From the IMG/VR virus record IMGVR_UViG_3300023184_000337, positions 1 through 33,834 of that record: a DNA stretch of 33,834 bases. The stretch is one strand, 5' to 3'. Below the pieces are notes generated by a model. The model did no database searches. It worked only from the letters and a program-made list of their open reading frames with translations, and had not been told where the DNA came from. Of the stretch, positions 4,956-28,251 are shown piece by piece. This DNA is from a virus. Taxonomy: Duplodnaviria > Caudoviricetes. Position numbers and translations under genes: made by a program. Positions within the stretch are counted from its first letter, which is position 1; each line of letters begins with the position of its first letter.

Positions 4956-5384
4956 TTAAGAATACGCTCTAGTGCCTTGTTTATCAATGATTAATGCCAT
5001 TTTACGTGGTTTAGCATCTACATTGTTGGGAATAGAAACATGAGTCCAACGATCAAACTCACGTATCACTTGGTCATAAGACAAATCAGATTTCATAATG
5101 GCAGTAACTACTTCATCAGGAGTCATTTCAGGCACACGAATATCCGCAGCACAACCTTTTCTGTGTTGGCTTGTATCTTTAGAACCAACCGCAGCGTTGA
5201 CTTGTTCAGACCTAAAAGCTGAGTTCACTATGATTGTTTTATTACCTAAGAGTTTCTTTATTTCTTCCAAAAATAAAGCTAGACGTTTCAGATTTGCTAA
5301 CTCTTGTTCATTGGGAGTATTGTCAAACTCACGGTGATCTGTAAACGTCAATTCTTCAAGAGTAAAGTGAGGTGATAAGTTCAT
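4956..5384 (-). CDS. Endolysin, peptidase M15A family
   Basis: LSPHFTLEE, SAFRS..VNAAVG...SQH..G.AAD, WTHVS zinc-binding motifs. Confidence 0.92.
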   Translation of the reverse strand: MNLSPHFTLEELTFTDHREFDNTPNEQELANLKRLALFLEEIKKLLGNKTIIVNSAFRSEQVNAAVGSKDTSQHRKGCAADIRVPEMTPDEVVTAIMKSDLSYDQVIREFDRWTHVSIPNNVDAKPRKMALIIDKQGTRAYS

Positions 5385-6569: not shown

Positions 6570-6854
6570 TTACTCCTTGTAAAACCAGTCATTGTATTTA
6601 GAAATTATTAACGCATCAAACTCTTCTTGAGTCATGTTATTAGTAACTTCAACACTACTAACAATTTGTTTGACATCACGTTCTAGCAGCTCGGAAGCTT
6701 TGAATGTGTTAATAACATCTTTATTAGCTACACCATCACCAGGTACAACTTTGTGTCCATACCCAACAATAAGGTTGCCATTACCATCATGGTAAGGCTT
6801 TGCCCTAAACCCTTTAGAACGGATAACAGTAAGTGCTTGATGAGATATGTTCAT
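6570..6854 (-). CDS. Truncated, probably inactive GH24 lysozyme-like protein
   Basis: MNIS...GFRAKPYHD....IVGYGH...ASELLERD...TQEEFDAL....YN matches the N-terminal half of phage lysozymes; catalytic E and T appear substituted. Confidence 0.75.
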   Translation of the reverse strand: MNISHQALTVIRSKGFRAKPYHDGNGNLIVGYGHKVVPGDGVANKDVINTFKASELLERDVKQIVSSVEVTNNMTQEEFDALIISKYNDWFYKE

Positions 6855-7585
6855 AGTGGTGTTATAGAAATAGCAACAGAAGGAGATAACGGATGTGCTG
6901 GACTTGTTCCTGCTGCGTAAGTAATTAAAGAAGAGTTGCCCGAATCAGTTGTCCAATAAATCTCAAAATAATCATTGGCACTAAACGTAAGCAACTGGTT
7001 CCAACCAAAGACTAATGCTCCATGAGTAGAACCATGTTTACCTAGGATAGCAGATGTACCAGCAGAGTCTGTTACATCTGTACCATTAATCCTAAACCAA
7101 ACAGTTATGTTGTCAGCAGAAACATCAGGGTTATTTCCCTGAATACTAAACTGGACGTTGTAGTTACCAGCTTTACTAATAACAACACGAGATGTAGGAG
7201 TGCCTAAAGCAATACCAGTGCTGTAGTCAGTCGTATTAAATGTTATAGCTGTAGGAGTAGCCGCAGCAGCAGTCTGCGTTGTAGTGTCATGGAAACTACC
7301 ATAGTTTCTAGCAGACCAACTAGGAACACCAGCACTAGTCATCTGCAAGAACGATGTGACTGTAGGAGCAGGTAACCTAGTTAACAGATTGCTAGAAGGA
7401 CTGTAAAGAATGTCACCAACGTTGTAGTTAGTTATACCAGTGCCACCATAGATAGCCTGAATAGGCACATCTAAAGTAGAAGCAGTACCAAAAGCTCGGT
7501 TGCTAAGCTTCTGAAACCAATCTCTCCAAACAAAACTTTCTTCTATTTTGTCTTGGGGTATAGGAAAACTTACTTTAGTTGCCAT
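6851..7585 (-). CDS. Tail/needle or fibre-like virion protein
   Basis: PIP...WRDWF N-terminus, GGTG..Y..GDILY fibre motif, C1q/jelly-roll-like C-terminus (GNYNVQFSIQ, NDYFEIYW). Confidence 0.7.
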   Translation of the reverse strand: MATKVSFPIPQDKIEESFVWRDWFQKLSNRAFGTASTLDVPIQAIYGGTGITNYNVGDILYSPSSNLLTRLPAPTVTSFLQMTSAGVPSWSARNYGSFHDTTTQTAAAATPTAITFNTTDYSTGIALGTPTSRVVISKAGNYNVQFSIQGNNPDVSADNITVWFRINGTDVTDSAGTSAILGKHGSTHGALVFGWNQLLTFSANDYFEIYWTTDSGNSSLITYAAGTSPAHPLSPSVAISITPL

Positions 7586-8919
7586 TAACAATACTCCATA
7601 TCTTTGCAGTAGCCATTTTTCTGAATGTCAGGTAACAATTTCTCAAGCTTCTCACCTATGTCATCTCTTATCATGCAAGAGTTGATCATGGTTACTTTCT
7701 TTTTGAAGGTCTTGTAGCAAGCTTCACGAGCATCCTCAACAGTCTTACCAACACCTGAAACAGTCATTACATAGCTGCCGCAAGTAACTAAACAAGGCTC
7801 AGTGTTCTTACCATCCTTACCTGGTCCCATTCCCATTTTGACTTCAGACAAGTGAATGTTCTTAGTAGCATCTTCTATGGTCATATCAAAGATAGGGTAA
7901 CCAGTGTTCTCCTTCTTCTTGACATTGCTGTACGGGTAGTCAGGTTGAGACACAACAATACCCACAGCTATGTCCTTACGTACCTTCAATGTGTCTTTAC
8001 CATCAAGGCTATCTAACATCCATTGAACAGGGTCACCTAGGTGCAGAGCTTGTTGGATCTGAAACAAAGGCCAACCAGGTCTAGTAGTGAACTCTAGAGG
8101 CCACGGATTACCTTTGTCGTCAATGATGCAGTTGACATCAATGTAACCAGAGTAACCAATGCCATGCAAAAAGTCCTCAAGAGGTTTAAGAACTTTGTCA
8201 GCTAATAAAGACTCTTCTGTGTAGCGCATCACAGTACCTTGCTCACCAGTAGCAGGACCATAGTCACCAGACATCAGTTTCTTAAACTCCCAGTTCTCCA
8301 AATAGTATTTAGAGAAACCACCAAGACCAAACCAACCACCAACAGCCATCTCAGAACCAGCATGGAACTCCTGAAGAACAAACTCACCGTCATAGGCGTT
8401 CATCTTCTTCCACTTGTTCAACATAAACACCATATCACGCCAGTCTTTAGAACAGTAGCTAAGAGACTTCTCACCATCACCAACAGGTTTAGATACGTAA
8501 CGCTTCTCTTTGTTACTAAGAACAAGAGCAATAGCGTCTTCGTACTTCTTAAACTTCTGCATAGGAATAGTCTTGATGCCAGCTCTCTCAAAGATAGCTG
8601 ACCCGTACTCCCGATCCTGTTCCCAACGAGCACCCTCTACATTGCAACCGTAGATAGGATAGCCCTTGATGCGATATGGTTCTAGTTGTTTAATGTACCT
8701 GCTGTTATCAGTAACAAATATTAAGTCAGCCCAGTCCATACTGGGTTCCCAATTAGCAACCTTTTTGAAGCAATGCTCCATGCCATCACCGTTTTCACAG
8801 CGAGTGCCATCAAAGTTGTTACGCATATACACACGAACATCATGACCATGAGCACTAGACTTGATAGCCAAGTCCATAGCAAACCCACAGTCAAACTGAT
8901 CAATGATTAAGAGTTTCAT
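7585..8919 (-). CDS. ATP-grasp ligase, PurD (phosphoribosylamine-glycine ligase)-like but divergent
   Basis: Collinear with PurD: YVSKP, LQEF..G.E, KK..SGDYGPATGEQG, LEFTTRPGWP, DYPY, LVTCGSYVMTVSGVGKTVEDA...Y, RDDIG. Confidence 0.88.
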   Translation of the reverse strand: MKLLIIDQFDCGFAMDLAIKSSAHGHDVRVYMRNNFDGTRCENGDGMEHCFKKVANWEPSMDWADLIFVTDNSRYIKQLEPYRIKGYPIYGCNVEGARWEQDREYGSAIFERAGIKTIPMQKFKKYEDAIALVLSNKEKRYVSKPVGDGEKSLSYCSKDWRDMVFMLNKWKKMNAYDGEFVLQEFHAGSEMAVGGWFGLGGFSKYYLENWEFKKLMSGDYGPATGEQGTVMRYTEESLLADKVLKPLEDFLHGIGYSGYIDVNCIIDDKGNPWPLEFTTRPGWPLFQIQQALHLGDPVQWMLDSLDGKDTLKVRKDIAVGIVVSQPDYPYSNVKKKENTGYPIFDMTIEDATKNIHLSEVKMGMGPGKDGKNTEPCLVTCGSYVMTVSGVGKTVEDAREACYKTFKKKVTMINSCMIRDDIGEKLEKLLPDIQKNGYCKDMEYC

Positions 8920-11900
8920 TATTTTGCTTCTTTGTTAAGTTTTTCTCTTCTTTTATCTAAAGCTCTTTTTTCTTGGTCATGTTTTGGTGTCCACTCCATG
9001 CGCCCTTTTTTAATTTCTTTGTCCCGATACTTCCAAGCATTTTCTTTGGTAGCAAGCTCACGTTCTGCTCGTGCTAATTTATTTTGTTCAGCAGTTTTAC
9101 CGTAGACAGGGAAACCCATTGTTCCTAGTAACGCTCTCTTAGCACCTTCTCCTTCAGGTGCATCAGCACCAGCTTGTATCTGAAAAGGTAAAGTTGATTG
9201 AGCAACTGCTTTAAGTCTACCAGCACCACTCAAATCAACTAACTTAGGAGCAGTGGGGCTAGCGTACTCTAAACCACCAACACCAACAACAGCAGCTTTA
9301 GGTAAGAACCCCAACTTGTTAGACAAAGTTTTATCTGGGTCCATGATCCAGTGGTAAGGCTCCATAGCGTGTTTCATAGCTTGCATAGACGTACCATCAG
9401 GCCATTCAATACGAGTTGGATCTTTGTTGTCCCAAACATCTCTACCCGCAGTCATGTTATTAATAGCATTGATTAACGTGAAATAAACCAATGCTGTTTT
9501 GAACTGATACAACCTAGCATAGTCAGCCTTGGTTGTAGGAGCCATCATGCCTTTAATACCTTCTATAGGTTGCAACTTAGCAGGATTTAAAGATTTTGGT
9601 AAAGCAGAACTAAAGGCACGAATAGTAGAAATAGTCCAGTCAGGAGCAAACAACATAACCTGCAACGATCTACGTCCTTCTGGACTGTAAGCAGCCATAG
9701 CTATACGTTTAGCAAACTCATTGTTAGTATTTCTAGCAGCATCAAACCAGTTAAGACCACCAAAACTATCGTTAACAAACTTAGCAATTTCTTTACGAGA
9801 AGCAGACTCATCAAAAGGTTTGCCCTCTTTAGCAGCTTGTAAGCGAGCCTTTTCAAGGTACGCATCAGCCACCATAATTTTGCCACCAGTGTGCAAATAA
9901 TCCCAGGTGTACTTATCAAAAACACCTAGGGTATATTTTTCAACTGTAGACATAGTGCTTTCAAGAGCACGAGTTTTAGGTCCATATTTACCAATCATTG
10001 TGTCTGCAAATTTACCCACAGCACTTAACATACCTTTAGAAACATCTTCAGGTACTTCTAATTGCAAACCAGACTCTCGTATCCATGTGTCTACGCTATC
10101 ACCTAAACCACCTTTTTTATATTGTTCAACAGCTTTAGAAATAGCAGATAACTGAAGGTCTTTGCCACTAACAGCTTTAACACCCTTTTCAACTAAAGGA
10201 AGAGCAATAGCTTCTTTAAGAGGAGTCCACAAAGGAATCTTGGCACTAGACAAAACTTCCATCAAAGACTTAGCGTGAAAGAAAGAACCAATAACGTTAA
10301 TACGTTTAACAGCTTGAGAAATAGTTCCCAACGCTTGCATAGTTAAACCAGGACCAGAATCAAATACAAACTTTAAAGGAGCTACTAAATCAGGATGAAT
10401 AGCATAACCAGCTAAATCTGGATGATCTATTTGTTTCCAACTATAAGGCAAATCTTCTGGACCAGTAATAGGTTTAATTAAAGACTCACCATTAATGTTT
10501 CTAATCTGTTTAATGTTATCTATTAGATTTTTATTTTCAATAGCTTTTTCAACAGACAAAGCATAGTCTTTGTAGATCTCTGCAAGGTTGTTTGTCTTAA
10601 GTTTGAAACGGTAGTCTTTACCATTCTCAGCCAACCACTCATTAATTCCATTAATATGACTAACAAGATCTTCACGAGTTTTAAGTCTACGTTCTTGACC
10701 GTACTTAGTAGTTGTCTTAGTGCCATTACCAGATGCTTTCTCACCATAACCAAAAGCATCACGCATGAACTCTTCAAGCGCACCTTTAGGAGCTGCACCT
10801 TCTGACACAACATTACGAGCTACGTAGTTCTCATGCCAACCTTTAATGACACCATTCTCTAAAGCTCGTTTACCAAGCTCGTCCATTAAGGTACGAAACT
10901 TAGTTGCAACTTCTTTAGCTTTGCCTTCTAAAGTAACACCCCTATCAATATCAAAACTAAGCTGTTCTAAATTAACATCTTTACCAGCCAACTCTTTTAT
11001 GTCAGCAGTGTTGTTATGAACAATACGTTCGTTAGCTAGTTTGTTATTAAGGTTTGTTCCTACAAATTCTTCAACTTGTTTAACAGGTTCAGGCCAAGTC
11101 TTTTTAAACTCTTCCCAACCTTTAAAGAACTCAACAGCTTCTACTTCACCGTGCTTCTCATAGATGTCTGTAGCTATGCTTAAAAATTCTTTGTCATCTT
11201 TAACGTCACGAGGAGAAGTTTTAGTTGTGTCAACAACAGGCTCATCAGGTGAGCTAGGCTTCTTAGGAACACCAGCAGGTTGTTCTTCAGTAATCTTAAA
11301 ACGTTCATCACCTGCTTTACGAAGGTCACCACTATGCAAACCGTCTTCGGGGATTTCTAGTTTAGCCCTAGTCTTAGTTACTTCCCTATACTTAGGTTCT
11401 GTAGGACCAAACTCTTCTACAAGTTTTAATTTCTTTTCAAGATCTTTAATTTCTTTTCTAGTATTTGATGCAGTTTGCCACGCATCAGTTCGTTCTGCAT
11501 CAGAAAGTTTTTCTTTTAAAGACTGAAGTTCTTTATTAATGTCTTCTTTTGTTCTAGAAGGAACAGCGACTTCTTTGGCAGTGTATTCTTCTACAGGTAC
11601 TTGACCTGTATTAACAGCACGGTCAGCAGCTTCTTGACGAGTTAAAAACTGACCACGCTCATCTAAGAAACCTTGGTCATGGGTATCAACAGTCTCAGCT
11701 TTACGAGCTTCGTCATGCTTAGGACCCATGCGTTCTATTTCACCAGTCTCTTTGTTCCTAATAGCAGCTTCAACCAAAGGAGATGTAGAAGCTCTTTGAT
11801 CAGCTTCTTTTTTAACTTTGTCTTTAAAAGTTTCTATTTGTTCAGGAGTAGCAGCAGGAGGAGGTGGTGTAACTTCTTCTTTTTTAACTTCAGGTTTAGG

Positions 11901-12587
11901 TTTTGTAACAGGAGCAGTTTGTCCCAATACCTTTTCACCAAGCTTAGTAGGCTTAGTAAATGCACCAGTAGCAACATCAATAGCTATAGATTTAGGATCA
12001 AGTACAGGTTGGCCTTCAATAGCTCGTTGACCAGCACCAATACCAGTCATAACACCAGAACCTACAGCAGCTTCTTTGATACTTTGAGGTAATCCAGGAC
12101 GCATAAAGGGGCCTAGAGAACCACCAGTAACAGAACCAGCTAAAGAATAACCAGGATATTCTTGACGTTGTTTTTCTCTTGTACCAACAATGTCTGTACC
12201 AAACACTTTGTCAAACACGCTCTCAAGACTAGTGATGCCCATAGAACCAAGATAACCACCTGCAACACCCCCCACAATACCCGTAACAGGTTTAGCCCAA
12301 ACAGGTTGAGGAATAGCCATACCAGCTCTAGCACCAGCTAAAGCAGCAGGAGAAGCACCAACAGACTCTAAATAAGAAGAAGCAAAAGCTCCAGCACCAC
12401 TAACTTTTTCTTCTTGTTTCTTAGTGTAGTCAGCCATAGACTTCTCTAAGAAGCCTGGTTTAGTTTCTTTAGCAGCAGGTTTAGTTACAACTTCATCATC
12501 TTGTCCCCAAGAAGAAGTCTGTTTAGCAGCAGGTGCAACAGTCTTAGCTGGAGTAACAACCTCATCGTTTTGTCCCCAATCAGCCAT
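8919..12587 (-). CDS. Large internal virion / DNA ejection protein, 1222 aa
   Basis: Size, position as third gene of the ejection trio, Gly/Ala hydrophobic N-terminal segments and a helical C-terminal region. Confidence 0.75.
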   Translation of the reverse strand: MADWGQNDEVVTPAKTVAPAAKQTSSWGQDDEVVTKPAAKETKPGFLEKSMADYTKKQEEKVSGAGAFASSYLESVGASPAALAGARAGMAIPQPVWAKPVTGIVGGVAGGYLGSMGITSLESVFDKVFGTDIVGTREKQRQEYPGYSLAGSVTGGSLGPFMRPGLPQSIKEAAVGSGVMTGIGAGQRAIEGQPVLDPKSIAIDVATGAFTKPTKLGEKVLGQTAPVTKPKPEVKKEEVTPPPPAATPEQIETFKDKVKKEADQRASTSPLVEAAIRNKETGEIERMGPKHDEARKAETVDTHDQGFLDERGQFLTRQEAADRAVNTGQVPVEEYTAKEVAVPSRTKEDINKELQSLKEKLSDAERTDAWQTASNTRKEIKDLEKKLKLVEEFGPTEPKYREVTKTRAKLEIPEDGLHSGDLRKAGDERFKITEEQPAGVPKKPSSPDEPVVDTTKTSPRDVKDDKEFLSIATDIYEKHGEVEAVEFFKGWEEFKKTWPEPVKQVEEFVGTNLNNKLANERIVHNNTADIKELAGKDVNLEQLSFDIDRGVTLEGKAKEVATKFRTLMDELGKRALENGVIKGWHENYVARNVVSEGAAPKGALEEFMRDAFGYGEKASGNGTKTTTKYGQERRLKTREDLVSHINGINEWLAENGKDYRFKLKTNNLAEIYKDYALSVEKAIENKNLIDNIKQIRNINGESLIKPITGPEDLPYSWKQIDHPDLAGYAIHPDLVAPLKFVFDSGPGLTMQALGTISQAVKRINVIGSFFHAKSLMEVLSSAKIPLWTPLKEAIALPLVEKGVKAVSGKDLQLSAISKAVEQYKKGGLGDSVDTWIRESGLQLEVPEDVSKGMLSAVGKFADTMIGKYGPKTRALESTMSTVEKYTLGVFDKYTWDYLHTGGKIMVADAYLEKARLQAAKEGKPFDESASRKEIAKFVNDSFGGLNWFDAARNTNNEFAKRIAMAAYSPEGRRSLQVMLFAPDWTISTIRAFSSALPKSLNPAKLQPIEGIKGMMAPTTKADYARLYQFKTALVYFTLINAINNMTAGRDVWDNKDPTRIEWPDGTSMQAMKHAMEPYHWIMDPDKTLSNKLGFLPKAAVVGVGGLEYASPTAPKLVDLSGAGRLKAVAQSTLPFQIQAGADAPEGEGAKRALLGTMGFPVYGKTAEQNKLARAERELATKENAWKYRDKEIKKGRMEWTPKHDQEKRALDKRREKLNKEAK

Positions 12588-12592
12588 GATGT

Positions 12593-13891
12593 TTAACCCT
12601 TCTTACGTTTGACTACACCATCTTGTATGTAGTAGCTGTTAGGAGGCAGCTTGTCATACTCTTCTTTAGAAGTAGGTTTAGCAGGATTGTCCTGAGTGTA
12701 TTTGTTACTAGGAACACTAGGCTTACTAGTTTTAGGAGTAAGAGTTGTGTCTCGTTTAGTAGAGACTGCTGGCTTCTCTTCTTCAGGAGAACCACCAAAC
12801 AACTCCATTTCCTTTTTAAGGTTATCAATAATAGTTTGTTTACCAGGAAAGTTAGGAGCTGTAACAGCTAGGTTAAGTTCTTTTTGAAGCTGACTACGTT
12901 TAAATTCATCACGAGCATTAACAGCTCTGCTGTACTCAGCAGTCTCATCAGACTTAAAAAACATAGCTTTATCTAATTTAGCTTGAGCAGCATCTACTTT
13001 GGCATTTAAACCTTCAAGAGTCTTTTGGCCAGACCTCTCAATAGTTTCTTGTGCTTTGGTATAGATGTTCCAGTCACGCATCTCACGATCACCACCACCC
13101 ATACTCTTAGCAGCTATGCGAGCGTTAGCATTAATAACAGCAATACGTTCTCTAGAAGTATCAACAAGCTTTTGTTTTTCCAACTCAATCTCTTTGAGCT
13201 GTTTAGCCATCTGCCCTTTAGCATTGAGCATCAAGTTCTTAGTAGCCTCTTTCTTTTCTTTAGGAGACATCTTGTTCCAATTAGCTTCACCAACTTGAGC
13301 AATCAAAGCTTTCCTATTTTCTTCAGGAAGGTTGCTAAATGTTTCTTCAACTTTGCTATCAGGCATAGCTGACAACACACCATACACATCACCAATTAAT
13401 TGAGATTGTTGGTCTAATGTTTTTTGTCTGTTAGCTACTTTACGAGTCTCATACAACTCAGAAGAAGCTAAAGTCTTTGCTCCGTTCTCTACATCACCAG
13501 ATGCAAATTGAACAGACGCAGCTAACCTAAGACGTTCAGCGTCATCAGCTTTAGACCATTCAGGAGTCTCAATAAGTTTCTGTAATTTTTCTTTAGACTC
13601 TTTACCTGCTTTAAGATTAGTGTCAGTAATTAAATTAGAAAGACGTTTAGCTTCTATGTTTTGTTTTTCTTGTTCTTGTTTTAATGCAGCTTCTTGAGGA
13701 GCATATTGAGCTTTAAGACGATCCTGTTCAAGCTTGAGCTTAACTTCTTCAGGAGCAGCACGATCCTCTGCTAATCTACGTTGAGCAGCAGCTTGAGTTA
13801 AGTCTTGTATGTACGGAGCTTTAGCTACGTTCTCTTGTAACTGCTCAATAGCTTTGCTACCAGCAGCTATGTCAGACATCATGTATGGCAT
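12593..13891 (-). CDS. Internal virion / ejection protein (coiled coil)
   Basis: Q/E/K/A-rich helical 432 aa protein between the pilot-like and large ejection proteins. Confidence 0.7.
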   Translation of the reverse strand: MPYMMSDIAAGSKAIEQLQENVAKAPYIQDLTQAAAQRRLAEDRAAPEEVKLKLEQDRLKAQYAPQEAALKQEQEKQNIEAKRLSNLITDTNLKAGKESKEKLQKLIETPEWSKADDAERLRLAASVQFASGDVENGAKTLASSELYETRKVANRQKTLDQQSQLIGDVYGVLSAMPDSKVEETFSNLPEENRKALIAQVGEANWNKMSPKEKKEATKNLMLNAKGQMAKQLKEIELEKQKLVDTSRERIAVINANARIAAKSMGGGDREMRDWNIYTKAQETIERSGQKTLEGLNAKVDAAQAKLDKAMFFKSDETAEYSRAVNARDEFKRSQLQKELNLAVTAPNFPGKQTIIDNLKKEMELFGGSPEEEKPAVSTKRDTTLTPKTSKPSVPSNKYTQDNPAKPTSKEEYDKLPPNSYYIQDGVVKRKKG

Positions 13892-13906: not shown

Positions 13907-14491
13907 TTAAAAGTTAACCATACCAAAAGGATCAAAGTTTTGTGGTCCACTCATGCCACCACTACCACCCCCATAGCTACTACCACTGGGGTTATATATT
14001 TGACCAATGCCTTGAACAATACCACCTAAACCTTGCATCTGAGCTTGTTGTTGTGCTTGTCCAGCAAGTATTCCAGCTTGTCCACCTATGGCAGGAGAGT
14101 AACCAGCACCAGAACCTGTAGCAAGTCTGTTCATATAGTCTTGCATAAAGCCATAGTAACCTTGTTGAGAAGTCTTATCTAAAGCTAATTGTTCGTTACC
14201 AGACCTAAGCATTCCAGATGCAGCAGATGTTCGTTTAGAAGCCTCTAGAGCAGGATCTAATACTCCTGTTTGAAACTGACTAAACCCAGGCATTTTAGTA
14301 ATGTCTGTTTGAACACCTGGTTGCAACATACCAGAATACATTTCTCCAAGTTTGGCTCTGTAAGGAGCAAAAGGATCTACAGCTTGTTGGGCAGTACCAC
14401 TTACTTGAGTACCACCGCCACCACCCCCGCCTCCAAATAAAGAGTTGAGTCCTCCAGCAATACCTACGATTGATCCAATAGTGGCTAACAT
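13907..14491 (-). CDS. DNA injection/pilot protein (P22 gp7-like)
   Basis: Gly-rich hydrophobic N-terminus, then PFAPY...PGFSQFQ...SAASGMLRSGN..L...SQ...Y..YMNRL pattern. Confidence 0.75.
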   Translation of the reverse strand: MLATIGSIVGIAGGLNSLFGGGGGGGGTQVSGTAQQAVDPFAPYRAKLGEMYSGMLQPGVQTDITKMPGFSQFQTGVLDPALEASKRTSAASGMLRSGNEQLALDKTSQQGYYGFMQDYMNRLATGSGAGYSPAIGGQAGILAGQAQQQAQMQGLGGIVQGIGQIYNPSGSSYGGGSGGMSGPQNFDPFGMVNF

Positions 14492-14492
14492 A

Positions 14493-14825
14493 TTAATTCT
14501 CCGATTCGTTGTAAGCTTTGACTAACTCTAGAGCTTCTTTAGCTTCCTTCTTAGATACTTCATCTTCAGCCCATAGGCATAACCAAATCACATCAGTTAT
14601 TGCTTCAACTCTATGAGTAGTATCTTTAGGAATAGTAACTAACTTATAACCAGTCATACGGGTGGTTATCCCGTTTATAGTAACGTCAGCCGTACCTGAG
14701 ACTAATACAGAACTGTGGGCATGTTTATGTTCGTGAGAGTTAATAAACATACCAGCGTCTATTTTTGTTTCCACAATAAAGACACTGCCACTCTCTTCAT
14801 CACCACCAAAAAACTGTAAGTCCAT
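14493..14825 (-). CDS. Cupin-fold protein
   Basis: SHEHKHAHSSVLVSG and IPKDTTHRVEAITD cupin motifs 1 and 2. Confidence 0.8.
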   Translation of the reverse strand: MDLQFFGGDEESGSVFIVETKIDAGMFINSHEHKHAHSSVLVSGTADVTINGITTRMTGYKLVTIPKDTTHRVEAITDVIWLCLWAEDEVSKKEAKEALELVKAYNESEN

Positions 14826-14834
14826 TTTAATCCT

Positions 14835-16304
14835 TTATCTGCGGTAACGTCCACCACCAACAGCTTGTTCTTGATCCATCTCACCAATCCTAAAATCTAC
14901 TTCAGCTCCATCAAGTCTTAATGGACAGTTACTAGTAACAAGGAACTCCCAAGCTCTACGTCTGTCAGCACCACTGAGATATATCTGTGACCTAGAAGCA
15001 TTCAAGTCTATAGACCTGTAACTAGACCAGGTAACGTAGTCATCTCCAGAGTGACGTATTTGCATTGTTCCTGCTGTCTTATCACCCACGATCTCTAACC
15101 TTCCATAAAACTTACGCTTAGTAGTCCCGTTGTCTATGATGTCCGTAACAGTACGGCAGTAGATAGGTTGGGTGTTATCTCGGTAGGTGTTGACATCAAA
15201 GTAATACAAAGTAGCTGTATCGTCATCTAGGGTATACGCTACCCCACCTAATGATGCAAAGAAAGCAGGACGAAAGTAAGACTCTTGGTAAGTACCAGGA
15301 TAGGGTTGGTCATTACTTTGGATAGAGAATTGAGTCCATGAGTACCACATCTTCTCGTTTAAGTCGTATACCAAAGTCTTTTGGGTGTTATGCAAAGTTA
15401 AAATATACAGAGTATGCCCATCTATGGTGTAGCAATAGGCAGATACTTGTCCTAAGTTATCAGCTTCTAAATGACGGTCTACAGACGATGTAGAGACACG
15501 AATGGGTGATACCCCATCCATAAGATAAACAGAACGGCTGTTGGTCTTTGTAGCCCCTATCCAGAGCACTGTGTTACTAGTAGCAACAATACTATCCCCA
15601 CTAGCACAACCAATCTCAGAGGTATAGGTAGAAGCTACAGCTAAAGGAGAACCAGTAGCGTTAGCAGCATCGTAATAAAACTGAGTGCTAACAGCACCAA
15701 AAGCTATTAAGTAGTTCAAGTGCTTAGCAATACCTACAAGGGTATCCGTAGTCTGCTCAAAGCTTATGTAGTTAAGAGCATCCCAAGTAGTTGGGTCACC
15801 AACGTTAGAGTTGTATATACGATTATTACTAGTGCCAATAAACAGATAGTTGTCTAAATACACAACACCAGATACATACGGTCCTGAAGGCAACGTAGTC
15901 ATGGACACAGATGAACCAGATTGGTCGTATAGGTATCCGTTAATTTTATTTTGAAAGAACAAGTAAGTGTCAAGGAACGTCTTAACAAAGTAACTCTGGC
16001 TAGTTGAAGCAGACGTAGTACCCAAAGTAGTCACAGCATAAGAAGAGCTAGGATCAACTTGGTAAATGGTGTTATTAATAACAGCAGTAAGCTTGTTGTT
16101 AAAAGCAACTAAACCTTGACTAGGTGTATATGCAGGTGGTGTAACAGGTGTAATCTGTACAGCAGCTACAAGACCTGGACGTTTAATAAACTCCCGCTTT
16201 TGATCCCTTGTCTCAAAGAAACAATTAGACGAATAAGAATCCTTAGCAAAACTACCCGTTCTGCTTTCAATAGGTTGAGTAAGCGGTATACGTTCTGTAG
16301 CCAT
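14835..16304 (-). CDS. Tail nozzle / DNA stabilisation protein (P22 gp10-like)
   Basis: KRPGL, YLDNY, IGCAS..SI, GHTLYIL...TLVYDL....W, SGDDYVTWS, RRRAWEF beta-propeller pattern. Confidence 0.85.
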   Translation of the reverse strand: MATERIPLTQPIESRTGSFAKDSYSSNCFFETRDQKREFIKRPGLVAAVQITPVTPPAYTPSQGLVAFNNKLTAVINNTIYQVDPSSSYAVTTLGTTSASTSQSYFVKTFLDTYLFFQNKINGYLYDQSGSSVSMTTLPSGPYVSGVVYLDNYLFIGTSNNRIYNSNVGDPTTWDALNYISFEQTTDTLVGIAKHLNYLIAFGAVSTQFYYDAANATGSPLAVASTYTSEIGCASGDSIVATSNTVLWIGATKTNSRSVYLMDGVSPIRVSTSSVDRHLEADNLGQVSAYCYTIDGHTLYILTLHNTQKTLVYDLNEKMWYSWTQFSIQSNDQPYPGTYQESYFRPAFFASLGGVAYTLDDDTATLYYFDVNTYRDNTQPIYCRTVTDIIDNGTTKRKFYGRLEIVGDKTAGTMQIRHSGDDYVTWSSYRSIDLNASRSQIYLSGADRRRAWEFLVTSNCPLRLDGAEVDFRIGEMDQEQAVGGGRYRR

Positions 16305-19521: not shown

Positions 19522-20169
19522 TTACAGAACAACCCAACGTGAACCCGTTGGAACAGTGACTGATTGACCAGATGCAATAGTAATAGGTCCTGTAGACATA
19601 GCGTTATTACCTGCTGTAATTGAGTAGCTAGTGTTTACAGTTTTACCGTTTTCATAGAACACAGCATCACTACCTGTACCAGTAGCACCACCACTAGATA
19701 CCCAAGCACTAGCTGTACCGTTATAGGCTTCTAGTTTGTTAGTACTGGTGTTAAAACCAATTAAACCAGCAGTAGGAGAAGCAGGTCTACCAGCAGTTGT
19801 CCAAGGACCTTGTACAGTACCTACAGAGAATGTTTGACGAAGAGAAAAGGTGTTTATCTCATCTAACTTGGGGAGGTCATTAAGAGAAGCTGATACTAAA
19901 CGCAGTTCAACTTTATCACCTGTACTCCAAGCAGAAGCAGTAGTACCATCTTGAGCACGAGTAATAGTAAACGTGTCTGTACTTCTAGCAGTAACTTTAA
20001 CAATTTCAATTGTTCCAACAGCATTAGCAAGAGTACAGTAGAAATAATCTCCAGCACCCAATGCTGGAAACAATGCACCTTGACCAGTAGCAACTGTCAA
20101 GCTAGTAACTGAACTGTTAATGCCAGACGCCAATGTTGACGTAGCATTGTTAGTAAACTTCATCACCAT
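19522..20169 (-). CDS. Tail fibre proximal/attachment protein
   Basis: FTNNA.STLA...EIVKVTAR..DTFTITRAQDGT.A N-domain; C-terminal GGATG...FYEN...NAMSTGPITI....TVP.GSRWVVL. Confidence 0.75.
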   Translation of the reverse strand: MVMKFTNNATSTLASGINSSVTSLTVATGQGALFPALGAGDYFYCTLANAVGTIEIVKVTARSTDTFTITRAQDGTTASAWSTGDKVELRLVSASLNDLPKLDEINTFSLRQTFSVGTVQGPWTTAGRPASPTAGLIGFNTSTNKLEAYNGTASAWVSSGGATGTGSDAVFYENGKTVNTSYSITAGNNAMSTGPITIASGQSVTVPTGSRWVVL

Positions 20170-20181
20170 AAAATATTCCCC

Positions 20182-20607
20182 TTAACCAACGGTTATTGTC
20201 CAAGTCAACAACAATCTATCTTGATCTTGTTTACCAATTGTAGTAAACACAATGTGAGACAACATTGTTCCACCAGAAATAGCATTATTAAAAATACCTG
20301 CTTCAGAAATAGATCCTGTAGCTACACCAGGAAGATAGTTCTTAACCAATGTAATTACGTTGTTAGCTATGGTTGCAGAATCAAAAGAAGTGCGGAGTGT
20401 TTCTGTTTGCAATGCTGTGTCTGCAAGTGCAGCAGCAGTAGTACCACTACCAATAGCTATAGCATTGAATGGAGTAGTGCTGCTACTAATAACAGCATTA
20501 GCTAAAAAATTCTTTCCAACTTGAACAATCAAGTTCTTTTTGCTAACAACAACAACGTCATTTAGCTTAAGCTCTACTTCTCCTACTAAACTAATTGTTT
20601 CGTTCAT
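20182..20607 (-). CDS. Virion structural protein (fibre-base-like)
   Basis: KNLIV..G, IAIGSGTTAA...DTALQTE, ISEAGIFN...GTM motifs. Confidence 0.65.
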   Translation of the reverse strand: MNETISLVGEVELKLNDVVVVSKKNLIVQVGKNFLANAVISSSTTPFNAIAIGSGTTAAALADTALQTETLRTSFDSATIANNVITLVKNYLPGVATGSISEAGIFNNAISGGTMLSHIVFTTIGKQDQDRLLLTWTITVG

Positions 20608-20939
20608 TTGTTAATACCCAAAGAATTTATAGCAGAACCATTTAACACAGAAGGAGAACTATGTATTTTAAGAACATAGGCTTCTGCTACGCTAATAGAC
20701 TCTGCTTCATTTAATTCGCCAAAGATAAAATGATCTGACTGTTCTGGTCTAGTAAACGGAGGAGCTTGTTTGTCAGCTACACCATGTACAAAGTCTTGGG
20801 GTTGTCTTGGTTCCCAATCCCCACTACAAACCATCAAACCATCCCACCTCATTTGTAGGTCGCTGTTCTTAAACTGACGACCACAAACGTCACAGATGAC
20901 GTTCCAACTTCCGTTATCCCATCTAGGTCTGTACGACAT
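20604..20939 (-). CDS. Conserved CxxC protein in the morphogenesis region
   Basis: ICDVCG...WDGLMVC..DWEPRQPQ. Confidence 0.7.
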   Translation of the reverse strand: MSYRPRWDNGSWNVICDVCGRQFKNSDLQMRWDGLMVCSGDWEPRQPQDFVHGVADKQAPPFTRPEQSDHFIFGELNEAESISVAEAYVLKIHSSPSVLNGSAINSLGINK

Positions 20940-21253
20940 TATTGCACTTCGGTTGTACTATACACTGGCAAGTCTCCCAGAGCAACTAGGGTACTTCCAA
21001 CACTAGTAGTCACAGTCACAACAAGGCGGTAGGTTACACCAGCTACACCACTCTGCACTTGTTGATAAACCTTATTACCCACAATAGTAGCTGAACCAGA
21101 CAGTACACCAGATGGACTAGCATCAACACCATCTATAACAAGTACAGAACAAGAAGCTGTAGACAATGTTTCCCCTGCCGCTAACGTCTGACTAAAGTCA
21201 AAAGACAACGGTTTTATTTCATCAACAAACTTATAGGAAAAATATTCAGCCAT
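20939..21253 (-). CDS. Small virion structural protein (Ig-like beta sandwich)
   Basis: K...E...SFDF...L..GETL...SG.AGVTYRL...VTTS.G pattern. Confidence 0.65.
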   Translation of the reverse strand: MAEYFSYKFVDEIKPLSFDFSQTLAAGETLSTASCSVLVIDGVDASPSGVLSGSATIVGNKVYQQVQSGVAGVTYRLVVTVTTSVGSTLVALGDLPVYSTTEVQ

Positions 21254-22391
21254 TTACATCATCCTGTTTTGTAACTACTATGTTGGTCTTCCTTGGTTTA
21301 ACTAGTATGTCTTTAAAACCAGCAAACACTTGAACAATAACTTTCTTGGTAGGGACAATTACGGTGTCCTCAATATTAGGCAGCACTCTATAGAAATGAC
21401 TGACGACACTAGTATAAACGGTTGTTACTAATAACACAAACCTAGAAGTAATGGTAGTCACAAAAGAGCTTGTGGTAGATATAGCAGTAAGGACTAATGA
21501 TCTGACTGTAGATATTGTTGCTGTAGAAGTTACAGAGGCTGCTATTGTTCTAATAAGAGCCAACAATTTAGATATAGTACTGGTCGTAGTTACAACAGCA
21601 GTCAAAGTCCTAGAATAAAAGAACCCATAAAGTAATAATACTGTACTACTTACAGATGCAATTATCTTTTTTCCTACAGCTTTAATAAGCAAAGCAAAGC
21701 TAATACAGACTACAGCAAGTGTTGTGATAACTTGTTTTAACAAAAACACAGAGCCAATAGATACAACACTAAAGGTTTTTGCTAATGCTTTTAGGATGGT
21801 ACTAGTAGAAGTACTAGTAGCCGTTATGTATTTGGTTATTGCTCTAGCAATACTTGTTGTAGACGTACTGGCTACAGAGACTAGTTTTAATGCAGATTTA
21901 ACAAGAGAAACAAAAGAAGAAGAAGATGCAAACAAAGTTAAATACCTAGCAACTGTTTTTGTAACTGTAGCTGTTGAAGTAACAGCAATAACTAAAAATT
22001 TAATATCTGACTTAACTATGCTAACAGCAGAGCTAGTGGTAGCAGTTATGTATTTGACTACTGCTCTAACAATATTAGCTGTAGACGTAGATGTTACAGA
22101 CTGTACTTTGCCTACAGTTAGTTTGTACGTAGCTGTAGAAGTAGAAGAAAAAGCAAAGCTTTTAATTATGCTTTTTAATAGTGTTGCAGTACTAGTAGCT
22201 GCAATGTTTATTGTTCTAGTAATGTAGGCAAGCTTAGTTGCAGTGCTAGTACTTGTAATAGTTCTAACAACACCAACAGCCCTAGCCAAAGTAAAAGTGC
22301 TACTGCTAGAAACTGTTAATGCTTGAGCATAAGAATTGCCACTAGTACCGTTAAGTACAGCGGCATTAACTGCAAAAGAATTAAGAGACAT
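21246..22391 (-). CDS. Ser/Thr/Val/Ala-rich repeat protein, probably fibrous
   Basis: About 18-aa degenerate repeats and almost no acidic residues; lies in the structural operon. Confidence 0.75.
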   Translation of the reverse strand: MSLNSFAVNAAVLNGTSGNSYAQALTVSSSSTFTLARAVGVVRTITSTSTATKLAYITRTINIAATSTATLLKSIIKSFAFSSTSTATYKLTVGKVQSVTSTSTANIVRAVVKYITATTSSAVSIVKSDIKFLVIAVTSTATVTKTVARYLTLFASSSSFVSLVKSALKLVSVASTSTTSIARAITKYITATSTSTSTILKALAKTFSVVSIGSVFLLKQVITTLAVVCISFALLIKAVGKKIIASVSSTVLLLYGFFYSRTLTAVVTTTSTISKLLALIRTIAASVTSTATISTVRSLVLTAISTTSSFVTTITSRFVLLVTTVYTSVVSHFYRVLPNIEDTVIVPTKKVIVQVFAGFKDILVKPRKTNIVVTKQDDVNG

Positions 22392-27677: not shown

Positions 27678-28025
27678 TTAAACTTTGGCTAGGTACGGAT
27701 CAACTAAGTCAACGTCAGCATCTAAAGTGCCTGTAACGTCCTTGTCGTTGATCATTCGGTATTCGCTTCCATCCTTACCAAGGTAAAGCAAACCAGCATA
27801 CTTAGCAAAAATAATCTTGTCCCCAACATTGCACCAAGGTGCAGGTTCATCGGCAAAACACTCGTTACCCATAGCAACGACTATTCCTGTGGTGTTAGCC
27901 ATCTGTTCACGTTCTTTGTATTTACCACTGGTAATAACAATACCGCTTTCAGACATCTCTTTGATCTCTTGGGGTTTAACCAAGATTCGCCAACCAACGG
28001 GGTTTATTCCTGACACGTTACTCAT
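27678..28025 (-). CDS. groES: Co-chaperonin GroES-like protein
   Basis: INPVGWRILVKP.....SESGIVI.......TTGIVVAMG.....VGDKIIFAKYAG......G.EYRMIND.DV. Confidence 0.92.
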   Translation of the reverse strand: MSNVSGINPVGWRILVKPQEIKEMSESGIVITSGKYKEREQMANTTGIVVAMGNECFADEPAPWCNVGDKIIFAKYAGLLYLGKDGSEYRMINDKDVTGTLDADVDLVDPYLAKV

Positions 28026-28251
28026 AGCTAGGTTCTTTCTTTTGGGTAGGTTCAAACAGATCTTCGTACTCAAGGTTAAGGATAATTGCGATTGCTCGGC
28101 ATCTACCTTTAACTTCGGACTCATCGTCAAACGAGCTGTTGACTAAACCTTCCTTCATTGCTTCTCTGTCGTTTGATAAAGACTTCATCAAACGTTTAGT
28201 AACTGGGTGATGTTTCCATTCATCAAAGTTACTAGGGCTTACTGGCTCCAT
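28018..28251 (-). CDS. Hypothetical protein
   Basis: SD AAGGAG; F.EWKHHPVT motif; between portal and GroES. Confidence 0.75.
   Translation of the reverse strand: MEPVSPSNFDEWKHHPVTKRLMKSLSNDREAMKEGLVNSSFDDESEVKGRCRAIAIILNLEYEDLFEPTQKKEPSYE

Follow-up and report, generated by a model that had tools for sequence, protein, structure and literature searches.

We report that a gene of a tailed phage, collinear with purD and carrying its name in databases, encodes a ligase of a separate family, for which the label 'purine gene' is probably wrong. The window, by which we mean the whole stretch of DNA analysed, is a 33.8-kb virus record (33,834 nucleotides; Caudoviricetes; IMG/VR record IMGVR_UViG_3300023184_000337) estimated to be 74% complete, and the gene lies on its minus strand at 7585..8919. 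Its 444-aa product has the fold of PurD, the glycinamide ribonucleotide synthetase (GARS), and lacks the residues with which PurD binds its substrate. We argue below that it is very probably an active amide ligase made late in infection and, far more tentatively, that it may travel in the phage head and act on a generic amine in the next cell.

The ligase has the fold of PurD and falls outside PurD

The first-pass annotation of the window had described the protein as collinear with PurD and, at the same time, as something other than a purine auxiliary gene. Collinearity was borne out: a phmmer search aligned residues 80-429 with PDB 2yw2 (E 4e-12), and the AlphaFold model (pLDDT 90.8) had Aquifex PurD as its closest fold, with a Z score of 32.8, a root-mean-square deviation of 3.5 and 22% identity over 396 aligned residues. 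The next folds were PurK (Z 22.4), PurT (Z 21.8) and PylC (Z 21.5), and a BFVD fold search returned distant ATP-grasp proteins only (best TM score 0.43). By model and structure match, therefore, the protein has an ATP-grasp fold with a C-terminal domain. Pfam recognised GARS_C and a weak GARS_A, with GARS_N absent. Against TIGR00877, for which 14 of 14 control genomes scored above the cut-off of 288 bits, the ligase scored 73.4 bits. This score, the lost substrate residues and the separate clade described below support the view that it is not a purine auxiliary gene; the protein lies outside PurD on everything examined, namely the score, the GGREH and R[LF]GDPE motifs, the arginine of GGRV and nesting in the tree.

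The activating machinery is kept and the acceptor side appears rebuilt

We aligned 130 family sequences with 29 PurDs (Pseudomonadota only; 5 of 36 loci were dropped, the open reading frame (ORF) not being extracted), taking Salmonella PurD as motif reference and as numbering for PurD residues. The four replacements listed by the first-pass annotation are all present: IDQFDCGF, WEFKK, GPATGEQG and EFTTRPGWP align with GNGGREH, QDHKR, GPNTGGMG and EFNCRFGDPE of Salmonella PurD. The residues to which the relevant passages of PMC2978367 and PMC8449271 assign substrate roles (R11, E12, D293, E295 and R383) are invariant in the 29 PurDs and replaced in the ligase family; E73, N288, Y271 and the GLAAGK loop are replaced too. 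No family sequence has GGRE[HA] (0/130; R11 and E12 occur in 29/29 PurDs) or RxGDPE (0/130 vs 29/29), which reads RPGWPL in the window ligase and corresponds to the R[LF]GDPE motif, PS00184 as quoted in PMC3261824. The arginine of GGRV in the C-domain is likewise replaced, by Y383 in the window ligase and by tyrosine in 75% of the family.

By contrast, PurD K145, E194, K216, E286 and R290 are retained as K144, E190, K213, E276 and R280 (99, 98, 98, 98 and 99% of the 130), D214 is conservatively replaced by Glu211, and the RxDIG motif is also kept. The ATP lysines, metal glutamate and acyl-phosphate arginine are thus in place (R103, K144, E190, E276 and R280 at 97-99%). It had been stated that the ATP-binding lysine and a QEF element are both preserved; the lysine is K144, but the glutamine of QEF is no PurD residue, since that site is Glu in 29/29 PurDs and Gln in 94% of the family. 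New in the family are E226 (93%), D261 (92%), N263 (86%; Gly in PurD and a metal-binding Glu in PurT), T278 (96%) and an aromatic residue at 283 (92%). In a second sample, drawn by motif, E211, K213, E226, E276, T278 and R280 were found in 44 of 44 sequences. Judged from these alignments, the carboxylate-activating machinery appears intact, and the acceptor side appears to have turned from basic to acidic and aromatic. Near-invariant catalytic residues together with replaced phosphoribosylamine residues support the proposal of a ligase with new substrates, and an active amide ligase with ATP-grasp chemistry is very probably what the gene encodes.

A large, mostly viral sister family of PurD

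One search gave 2467 relatives of the ligase and another 470 representatives at E<1e-30; JGI and NCBI names read phosphoribosylamine--glycine ligase. Viral sequences make up 69-93% of the nearest atlas clusters, and archaeal and bacterial clusters appear lower in the ranking. In two trees, with 130 and 107 family sequences and a Pseudomonadota-only PurD set, the family formed one clade with 0/29 PurDs inside, on a stem to PurD of 1.95 and 2.33 substitutions per site (support 0.88 and 0.97). The sequences thus point to a large sister family of PurD, mostly viral and with cellular members, so that the separate clade expected by the annotation stands and a purely phage clade does not. Codon differences between close relatives are for the most part synonymous (29 vs 4, 104 vs 15 and 111 vs 52 in three of six pairs compared), as in an enzyme under strong selection.

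Inteins, which favour conserved catalytic motifs, were flagged by a pattern scan in 17 of 150 representatives, many with LAGLIDADG domains; they are inserted at four sites of the catalytic core (before T224, T229, C264 and residue 279). The carriers include P0126, P0128, P0177, P0239, P0242 and P0278, the last two with two inteins each, and four additional long two-part matches escaped the pattern. In one locus (L354:4504-6708) the ligase, with a HAD-like N-terminal segment, is split in two around an HNH-like ORF, possibly an intron or intein remnant.

In the phage collection the sole family member was a metagenomic record, MW202796, and no cultured phage there has the gene. In this record (MW202796.1; L095) the ligase, at 20001-21332, is unannotated in GenBank, and a zinc-finger gene at 11988-12233 is labelled ubiquitin. 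A ubiquitin-like partner was considered and rejected, as this small zinc-finger protein gave no ubiquitin match. Many ligase copies come from records of 30-40 kb whose identifiers are of the IMG genome type (L213-L254), probably prophages of cultured bacteria.

A late-promoter-like signal upstream of the T4-like copies

Some copies occur in T4-like phages, recognised by gp33-like and gp59-like neighbours. They form one clade (support 1.0) nested among podovirus-type copies (enclosing nodes 0.71-0.91). TAAATA stands at -37 to -41 in each of the 8 distinct regions upstream of T4-like copies, and the rate for other ORFs of the same loci is 16 of 115, a comparison whose P value is post hoc because the core was chosen after seeing the sequences; the full TATAAATA preceded only 2 of 12 T4-like copies. 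A predicted hairpin covers or abuts the ribosome-binding site in 4 of the 8 regions and overlaps the late-promoter-like site strongly in two. The T4 genes e, soc and 49 have a similar hairpin layout, which according to the passage in PMC3014915 prevents expression of genes such as e and soc before late transcription sets in. The sites show that the ligase, once it had entered an unrelated phage and left the virion operon, came to carry a late signal. The TAAATA sites lend support to the claim that the ligase is made late, and we consider its late expression highly probable.

In one of the ligase loci (L373:6714-11246) the genes that follow the ligase start with MxxFxxFxxE-type leaders reminiscent of T4 capsid-targeting sequences, and the ligase itself is without one. 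A T4-like phage with the ligase also contains what we take, by eye, to be a fragment of pmoC, a methane monooxygenase subunit (L359:2-508; no PHROGs match).

The ligase usually lies behind a large ejection-type gene

The features of the window around the ligase are as follows.

7585..8919, minus strand: PurD-fold ATP-grasp ligase (P0001), 444 aa (ORF, Pfam, TIGR00877, phmmer, model, alignment)
8917..8921, minus strand: TAATG overlap of the stop of the 1222-aa gene and the start of the ligase (catta on the plus strand)
7583..7587, minus strand: TAATG overlap of the ligase stop and the ATG of the 244-aa downstream gene (catta on the plus strand)
8919..12587, minus strand: putative third ejection-type protein, 1222 aa, P22 gp16 position (role from gene order)
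12593..13891, minus strand: putative second ejection-type protein, 432 aa, gp20 position
13907..14491, minus strand: putative first ejection-type protein, Gly-rich, 194 aa, gp7 position
14493..14825, minus strand: cupin, 110 aa, in a variable slot (Pfam; comparison with relatives)
14835..16304, minus strand: head-closure protein Hc3, marker of a P22-like tail hub (phrog_578, E 1e-47)
6851..7585, minus strand: tail-fibre-type protein, 244 aa, with conserved N-terminal module and variable C-terminus (Pfam; comparison of loci)

The 444-aa ORF with TAATG joints on both sides, as first described, is indeed present on the minus strand; the plus-strand frame over 7585-8919 is riddled with stops. Minus-strand genes run in the order terminase, portal, capsid, tail fibres, adaptor, head closure Hc3, three large or Gly-rich genes, ligase, tail-type gene and lysis genes, an order we take to be P22-like, and because of it the three genes before the ligase are named ejection-type. 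None of the three matched a named family; the 1222-aa protein had no Pfam match and one short, unnamed PHROG match. The 244-aa downstream protein gave a weak BclA_C match (E 0.0017) and is called a tail protein from its position. A sigma-70 scan for a promoter of the ligase in the window was at chance (21 vs 20.6). Four short, low-depth contigs from one lake RNA run cover 7450-8691 and were not used as evidence, since contigs of a single run can neither demonstrate transcription nor rank genes.

Close relatives supplied 95 loci, 71 of them with a member of the large ejection-type family seen in the window, and a further subgroup has a different large gene of its own at the same position. A motif scan, independent of closeness, gave 120 loci, of which 80 with flanks were analysed (79 ligase ORFs in 53 clusters). 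With 'large ORF' judged by size and place, 33 of the 53 representatives lay directly after a large ORF and 11 more within three genes of one; 5 lay in T4-like small-gene regions and 4 elsewhere. The position behind the ejection protein, expected to hold always, is therefore the usual one, with T4-like, after-portal and portal-MuF settings as departures from it. In P0233, portal, a HExxE segment, ligase and MuF form one chain, and its 59%-identical relative L286 has portal and MuF without the ligase (with a weak ART-PolyVal match, E 0.0012). In L388 the gene directly after the portal is a ligase whose HAD-like tail shows a DxD motif by eye and has no Pfam match. The family is therefore found beside portal or ejection genes, and once fused to portal and MuF, an arrangement in keeping with cargo; MuF and portal fusions are interpreted as packaged effectors in the passages of PMC5512222 and PMC9503650 that treat them.

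Neither the window ligase nor the T4-like copies have an N-terminal extension that could serve as a packaging signal. We know of no defined packaging signal for P22-type cargo.

The slot before the first ejection gene (window 14493-14825; L056, L075, L114, L280 and L076) is variable, with a cupin, a cupin-SET fusion, a GNAT, an Asp/Asn-hydroxylase-like gene and an unnamed gene alternating there. A small HExxE protein of an unnamed viral family (L363:5024-5380, L364, L368, L327 and L121), whose structure weakly resembles the zinc peptidases ImmA/IrrE and SprT (TM 0.5-0.6), adjoins 7 of the 79 ligase ORFs sampled; in P0233 a similar motif (residues ~500-560) comes before the ligase.

The gene is dispensable

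We compared relatives picked by a zinc-finger motif rather than by the ligase, 20 records of at least 40 kb among 80 listed. The ligase was found in 8 of the 20, all among the 17 near-complete records (3 of the 8 were already known through the ligase itself), and was absent from the other 9 near-complete ones. In one record without it (G1242) the ejection-type gene is joined straight to the tail-type gene, and the best matches to ligase-bearing phages of its group are 85% for the adaptor, 80% for Hc3, 72% for the ejection-type protein and 83% for the tail-type protein. As both neighbours are joined without it, the ligase is unnecessary for building this virion. The absence from 9 of 17 near-complete relatives, clean in G1242, thus shows that the ligase is no fixed part of the virion module and rules out an obligate assembly factor. 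A feature of the large ejection protein that tracks the presence of the ligase was also sought, and none was seen at its C-terminus.

Cellular members and amine chemistry

Cellular members were found in Halarchaeum, Chondrinema, Sphingomonas and Roseomonas plasmid records and, among other genomes, in 14 of 400 Acidobacteriota and 2 of 400 Alphaproteobacteria; in a 401-genome Pseudomonadota sample, searched with a phage-weighted profile, the only family-level match was in a phage-like contig. All 11 aligned cellular members share the signature E211/K213/E226/T278/R280/aromatic 283. In one Acidobacteriota lineage a class III aminotransferase, an MFS gene, the ligase and an AmpG-like MFS gene stand together in 5-6 of the 14 loci, two of them with a flavin amine oxidase upstream. 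These neighbours fit amine chemistry, in one lineage and with no polyamine named. Three other cellular loci have a methyltransferase and a haem-oxygenase-like gene, one of them also a SET gene.

A late head-cargo ligase and its rivals

We favour a ligase that is made late, enters the head as cargo and acts on a generic amine in the next cell, a reading we consider possible rather than probable. K213 and R280 would hold a carboxylate for phosphorylation by ATP, and attack of an amine on the acyl phosphate would give an amide, a course that ATP-grasp chemistry makes very likely; that the enzyme would be made only late is about as likely. Packing into the head together with the ejection proteins is somewhat less than an even prospect. 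Given its dispensability and its movement between unrelated head types, the gene probably serves a generic substrate and not a single ejection protein. The acidic and aromatic pocket (E211, E226, often D261, W/Y283 and Y383) might, with slightly less confidence than the packing, take a polycationic amine such as a host polyamine, which would be acylated in the newly infected cell and so blunt polyamine-based inhibition of phage replication. In the parts of PMC9992862 that bear on this, polyamines inhibit the replication of most phages tested, with N4-like phages evading, and high polyamines block phage DNA replication, from which the polyamine reading gains its motive. The full chain, polyamine counter-defence included, is less likely than the late head-cargo ligase. 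A wider version seems unlikely to us: podoviruses, T4-like myoviruses and portal-MuF viruses would all have adopted a late ligase that acylates host polyamines, whether injected alongside the DNA or active just before lysis, and thereby ends both inhibition and danger signalling.

Several observations weigh against the head-cargo ligase or its polyamine substrate. The pocket was read from the alignment to PurD and not from model coordinates, and D261 and N263 occur in only 20 and 21 of the 44 motif-sampled phage copies. The eight T4-like promoters belong to one clade and therefore represent a single acquisition that persisted over 56-72% identity, and only 2 of the 8 have strong hairpin z-scores. 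The T4-like copies begin at the enzyme fold, without an N-terminal extension as candidate capsid-targeting leader, which speaks against packaging in the manner of T4. Fusion to portal and MuF was seen in one sequence only; when longer fused forms of the ligase were sought, 2 proteins emerged and neither was a new cargo fusion; stop/start overlaps are ordinary in phage operons. Many cellular loci have unrelated neighbours, none of 16 has a polyamine biosynthesis gene among those scanned, and the AdoMet/arginine decarboxylase family SpeD (PF02675) was found in 0 of 50 ligase-bearing phage records. On that result an amine supply encoded by the phage was rejected, other decarboxylase families being outside the search.

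We rank the head-cargo ligase ahead of virion-protein decoration, and decoration ahead of polyamine acylation before lysis. Decoration, in which the ligase stays in the producer cell and attaches an amino acid or polyamine by an amide to virion proteins as an optional decoration or shield, is less likely though worth considering. It would suit late expression, the T4-like copies without a targeting leader, and the protein-modifying folds of the cassette's variable slot (GNAT, SET, Asp/Asn-hydroxylase-like), and the HExxE protein beside 7 of 79 ligases could be an eraser. However, ejection proteins of a relative with and a relative without the ligase share 70% identity and have the same C-terminus, and the identical active-site signature is found across unrelated head types as well as in cells, which have no virion proteins. 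None of the cassette proteins has a conserved terminal residue, which also led us to reject activation of a C-terminal glycine of the ejection protein. Acylation of host polyamines in the producer cell before lysis, altering DNA counter-ions or masking a danger signal, would jointly explain late-only timing, dispensability, portability and the missing leader, and passages in PMC9992862 and PMC9992855 report that polyamines from lysed cells warn neighbours and that viruses encode spermidine-inactivating enzymes. We nevertheless think it unlikely: it leaves the fixed place behind ejection or portal genes and the portal-MuF fusion unexplained, the amine substrate is itself only a candidate, and the benefit would be shared with competing phages.

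The two remaining explanations are very improbable. A true glycinamide ribonucleotide synthetase, the purine auxiliary gene of the databases, would agree with PurD as closest fold and family, with the JGI and NCBI names, with the retention of K216 and R290 and with the conservative change of D214 to Glu. Against it, all phosphoribosylamine ligands and two glycine ligands are gone, the stem measures 1.95-2.3 substitutions per site with no PurD within the clade, timing is late, and a PurF partner for an amine whose half-life is 5 seconds is missing (PurF scored above its cut-off in 0 of 50 phage records with the ligase). Among the 32 window proteins scanned with Pfam we found no other purine family, the plus-strand replication genes lying outside that scan. 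A catalytically dead protein with a structural or chaperone role in ejection would account for position and translational coupling, but the catalytic residues are near-invariant and 9 of 17 near-complete relatives lack the gene.

Relation to known systems

PurD/GARS (EC 6.3.4.13; TIGR00877; PDB 2YW2, 1GSO and 2QK4) shares with the ligase a collinear four-domain ATP-grasp fold; the ligase differs in its late virion context, the lack of PurF, the new residues E226, D261, N263 and W/Y283, and its separate clade. One precedent is haloarchaeal. The passage in PMC3261824 treats rrnAC0307 and Hlac_1553, which lack the Asp of R[LF]GDPE and have a divergent P-loop, as not GARS; it dismissed this 'extra' PurD as non-PurD in 2011, and within that passage no function is given and phages are unmentioned. 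A Halarchaeum protein falls inside the ligase family in our trees, and rrnAC0307 and Hlac_1553 likely belong to it.

The ligase of P0233, within its portal-MuF chain, resembles the portal/MuF-fused effectors among phage polyvalent proteins in the passages of PMC5512222 and PMC9503650, although most ligase family members are stand-alone genes. The main texts of these two papers do not contain 'PurD' or 'glycinamide', and the supplementary domain lists of PMC5512222 may bear on novelty. The same two papers and PMC7824862 describe, in the relevant parts of their texts, packaged enzyme cargo and other phage ATP-grasp families, and 'PurD' does not occur in those texts. PylC and glutathionylspermidine synthetase are amine-accepting ATP-grasp ligases. 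The likeness we propose, linkage of a carboxylate to an amine of lysine or polyamine type, is one of chemistry alone, and PurD is much closer to the ligase in fold and sequence than either of them. A passage of PMC9992855 mentions phage homologues of gss.

In the open-access literature, supplements being outside the search, we found no account of the phage ligase family. Searches there for PurD-like, PurD homolog, PurD paralog or GARS-like proteins led to PMC3261824 only, and the combination of ATP-grasp, phage, virion and PurD to no paper; 'ligase', 'ATP-grasp' and 'purD' do not occur in PMC13625781, and PMC11041744 was discarded as a purD paper, the match being 'Purdue'. New here are the dispensability of the gene, its uptake by T4-like phages with a late-promoter-like TAAATA, and a copy inside a portal-MuF protein.

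Thousands of viral proteins are named phosphoribosylamine--glycine ligase or have a GARS Pfam match, and virome papers count purD as a purine auxiliary gene, as PMC12647753 does (Supplementary Fig. 17 of which may bear on novelty). The ligase family cannot count as evidence of viral purine synthesis. It offers an uncharacterised enzyme with a specific late timing signal and a small, soluble and easily assayed fold. Should it prove to be injected cargo that acts on polyamines, it would represent a new effector chemistry of phages and a direct handle on their response to polyamine-based defence.

Other genes of the window

A GroES-like (Cpn10) gene lies at 27678-28130, between the portal and the scaffold-region genes. 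Of two candidate endolysins, one is a peptidase M15 (4956-5384) and the other a short lysozyme-like protein of 94 aa (6570-6854). In the second ejection-type protein the final ~15 aa (12593-12640) are matched to the initial ~15 aa of the third (12545-12587); these end pairs are swapped jointly between phages at many loci, in at least 6 pair types, and look like cognate docking modules or a split domain.

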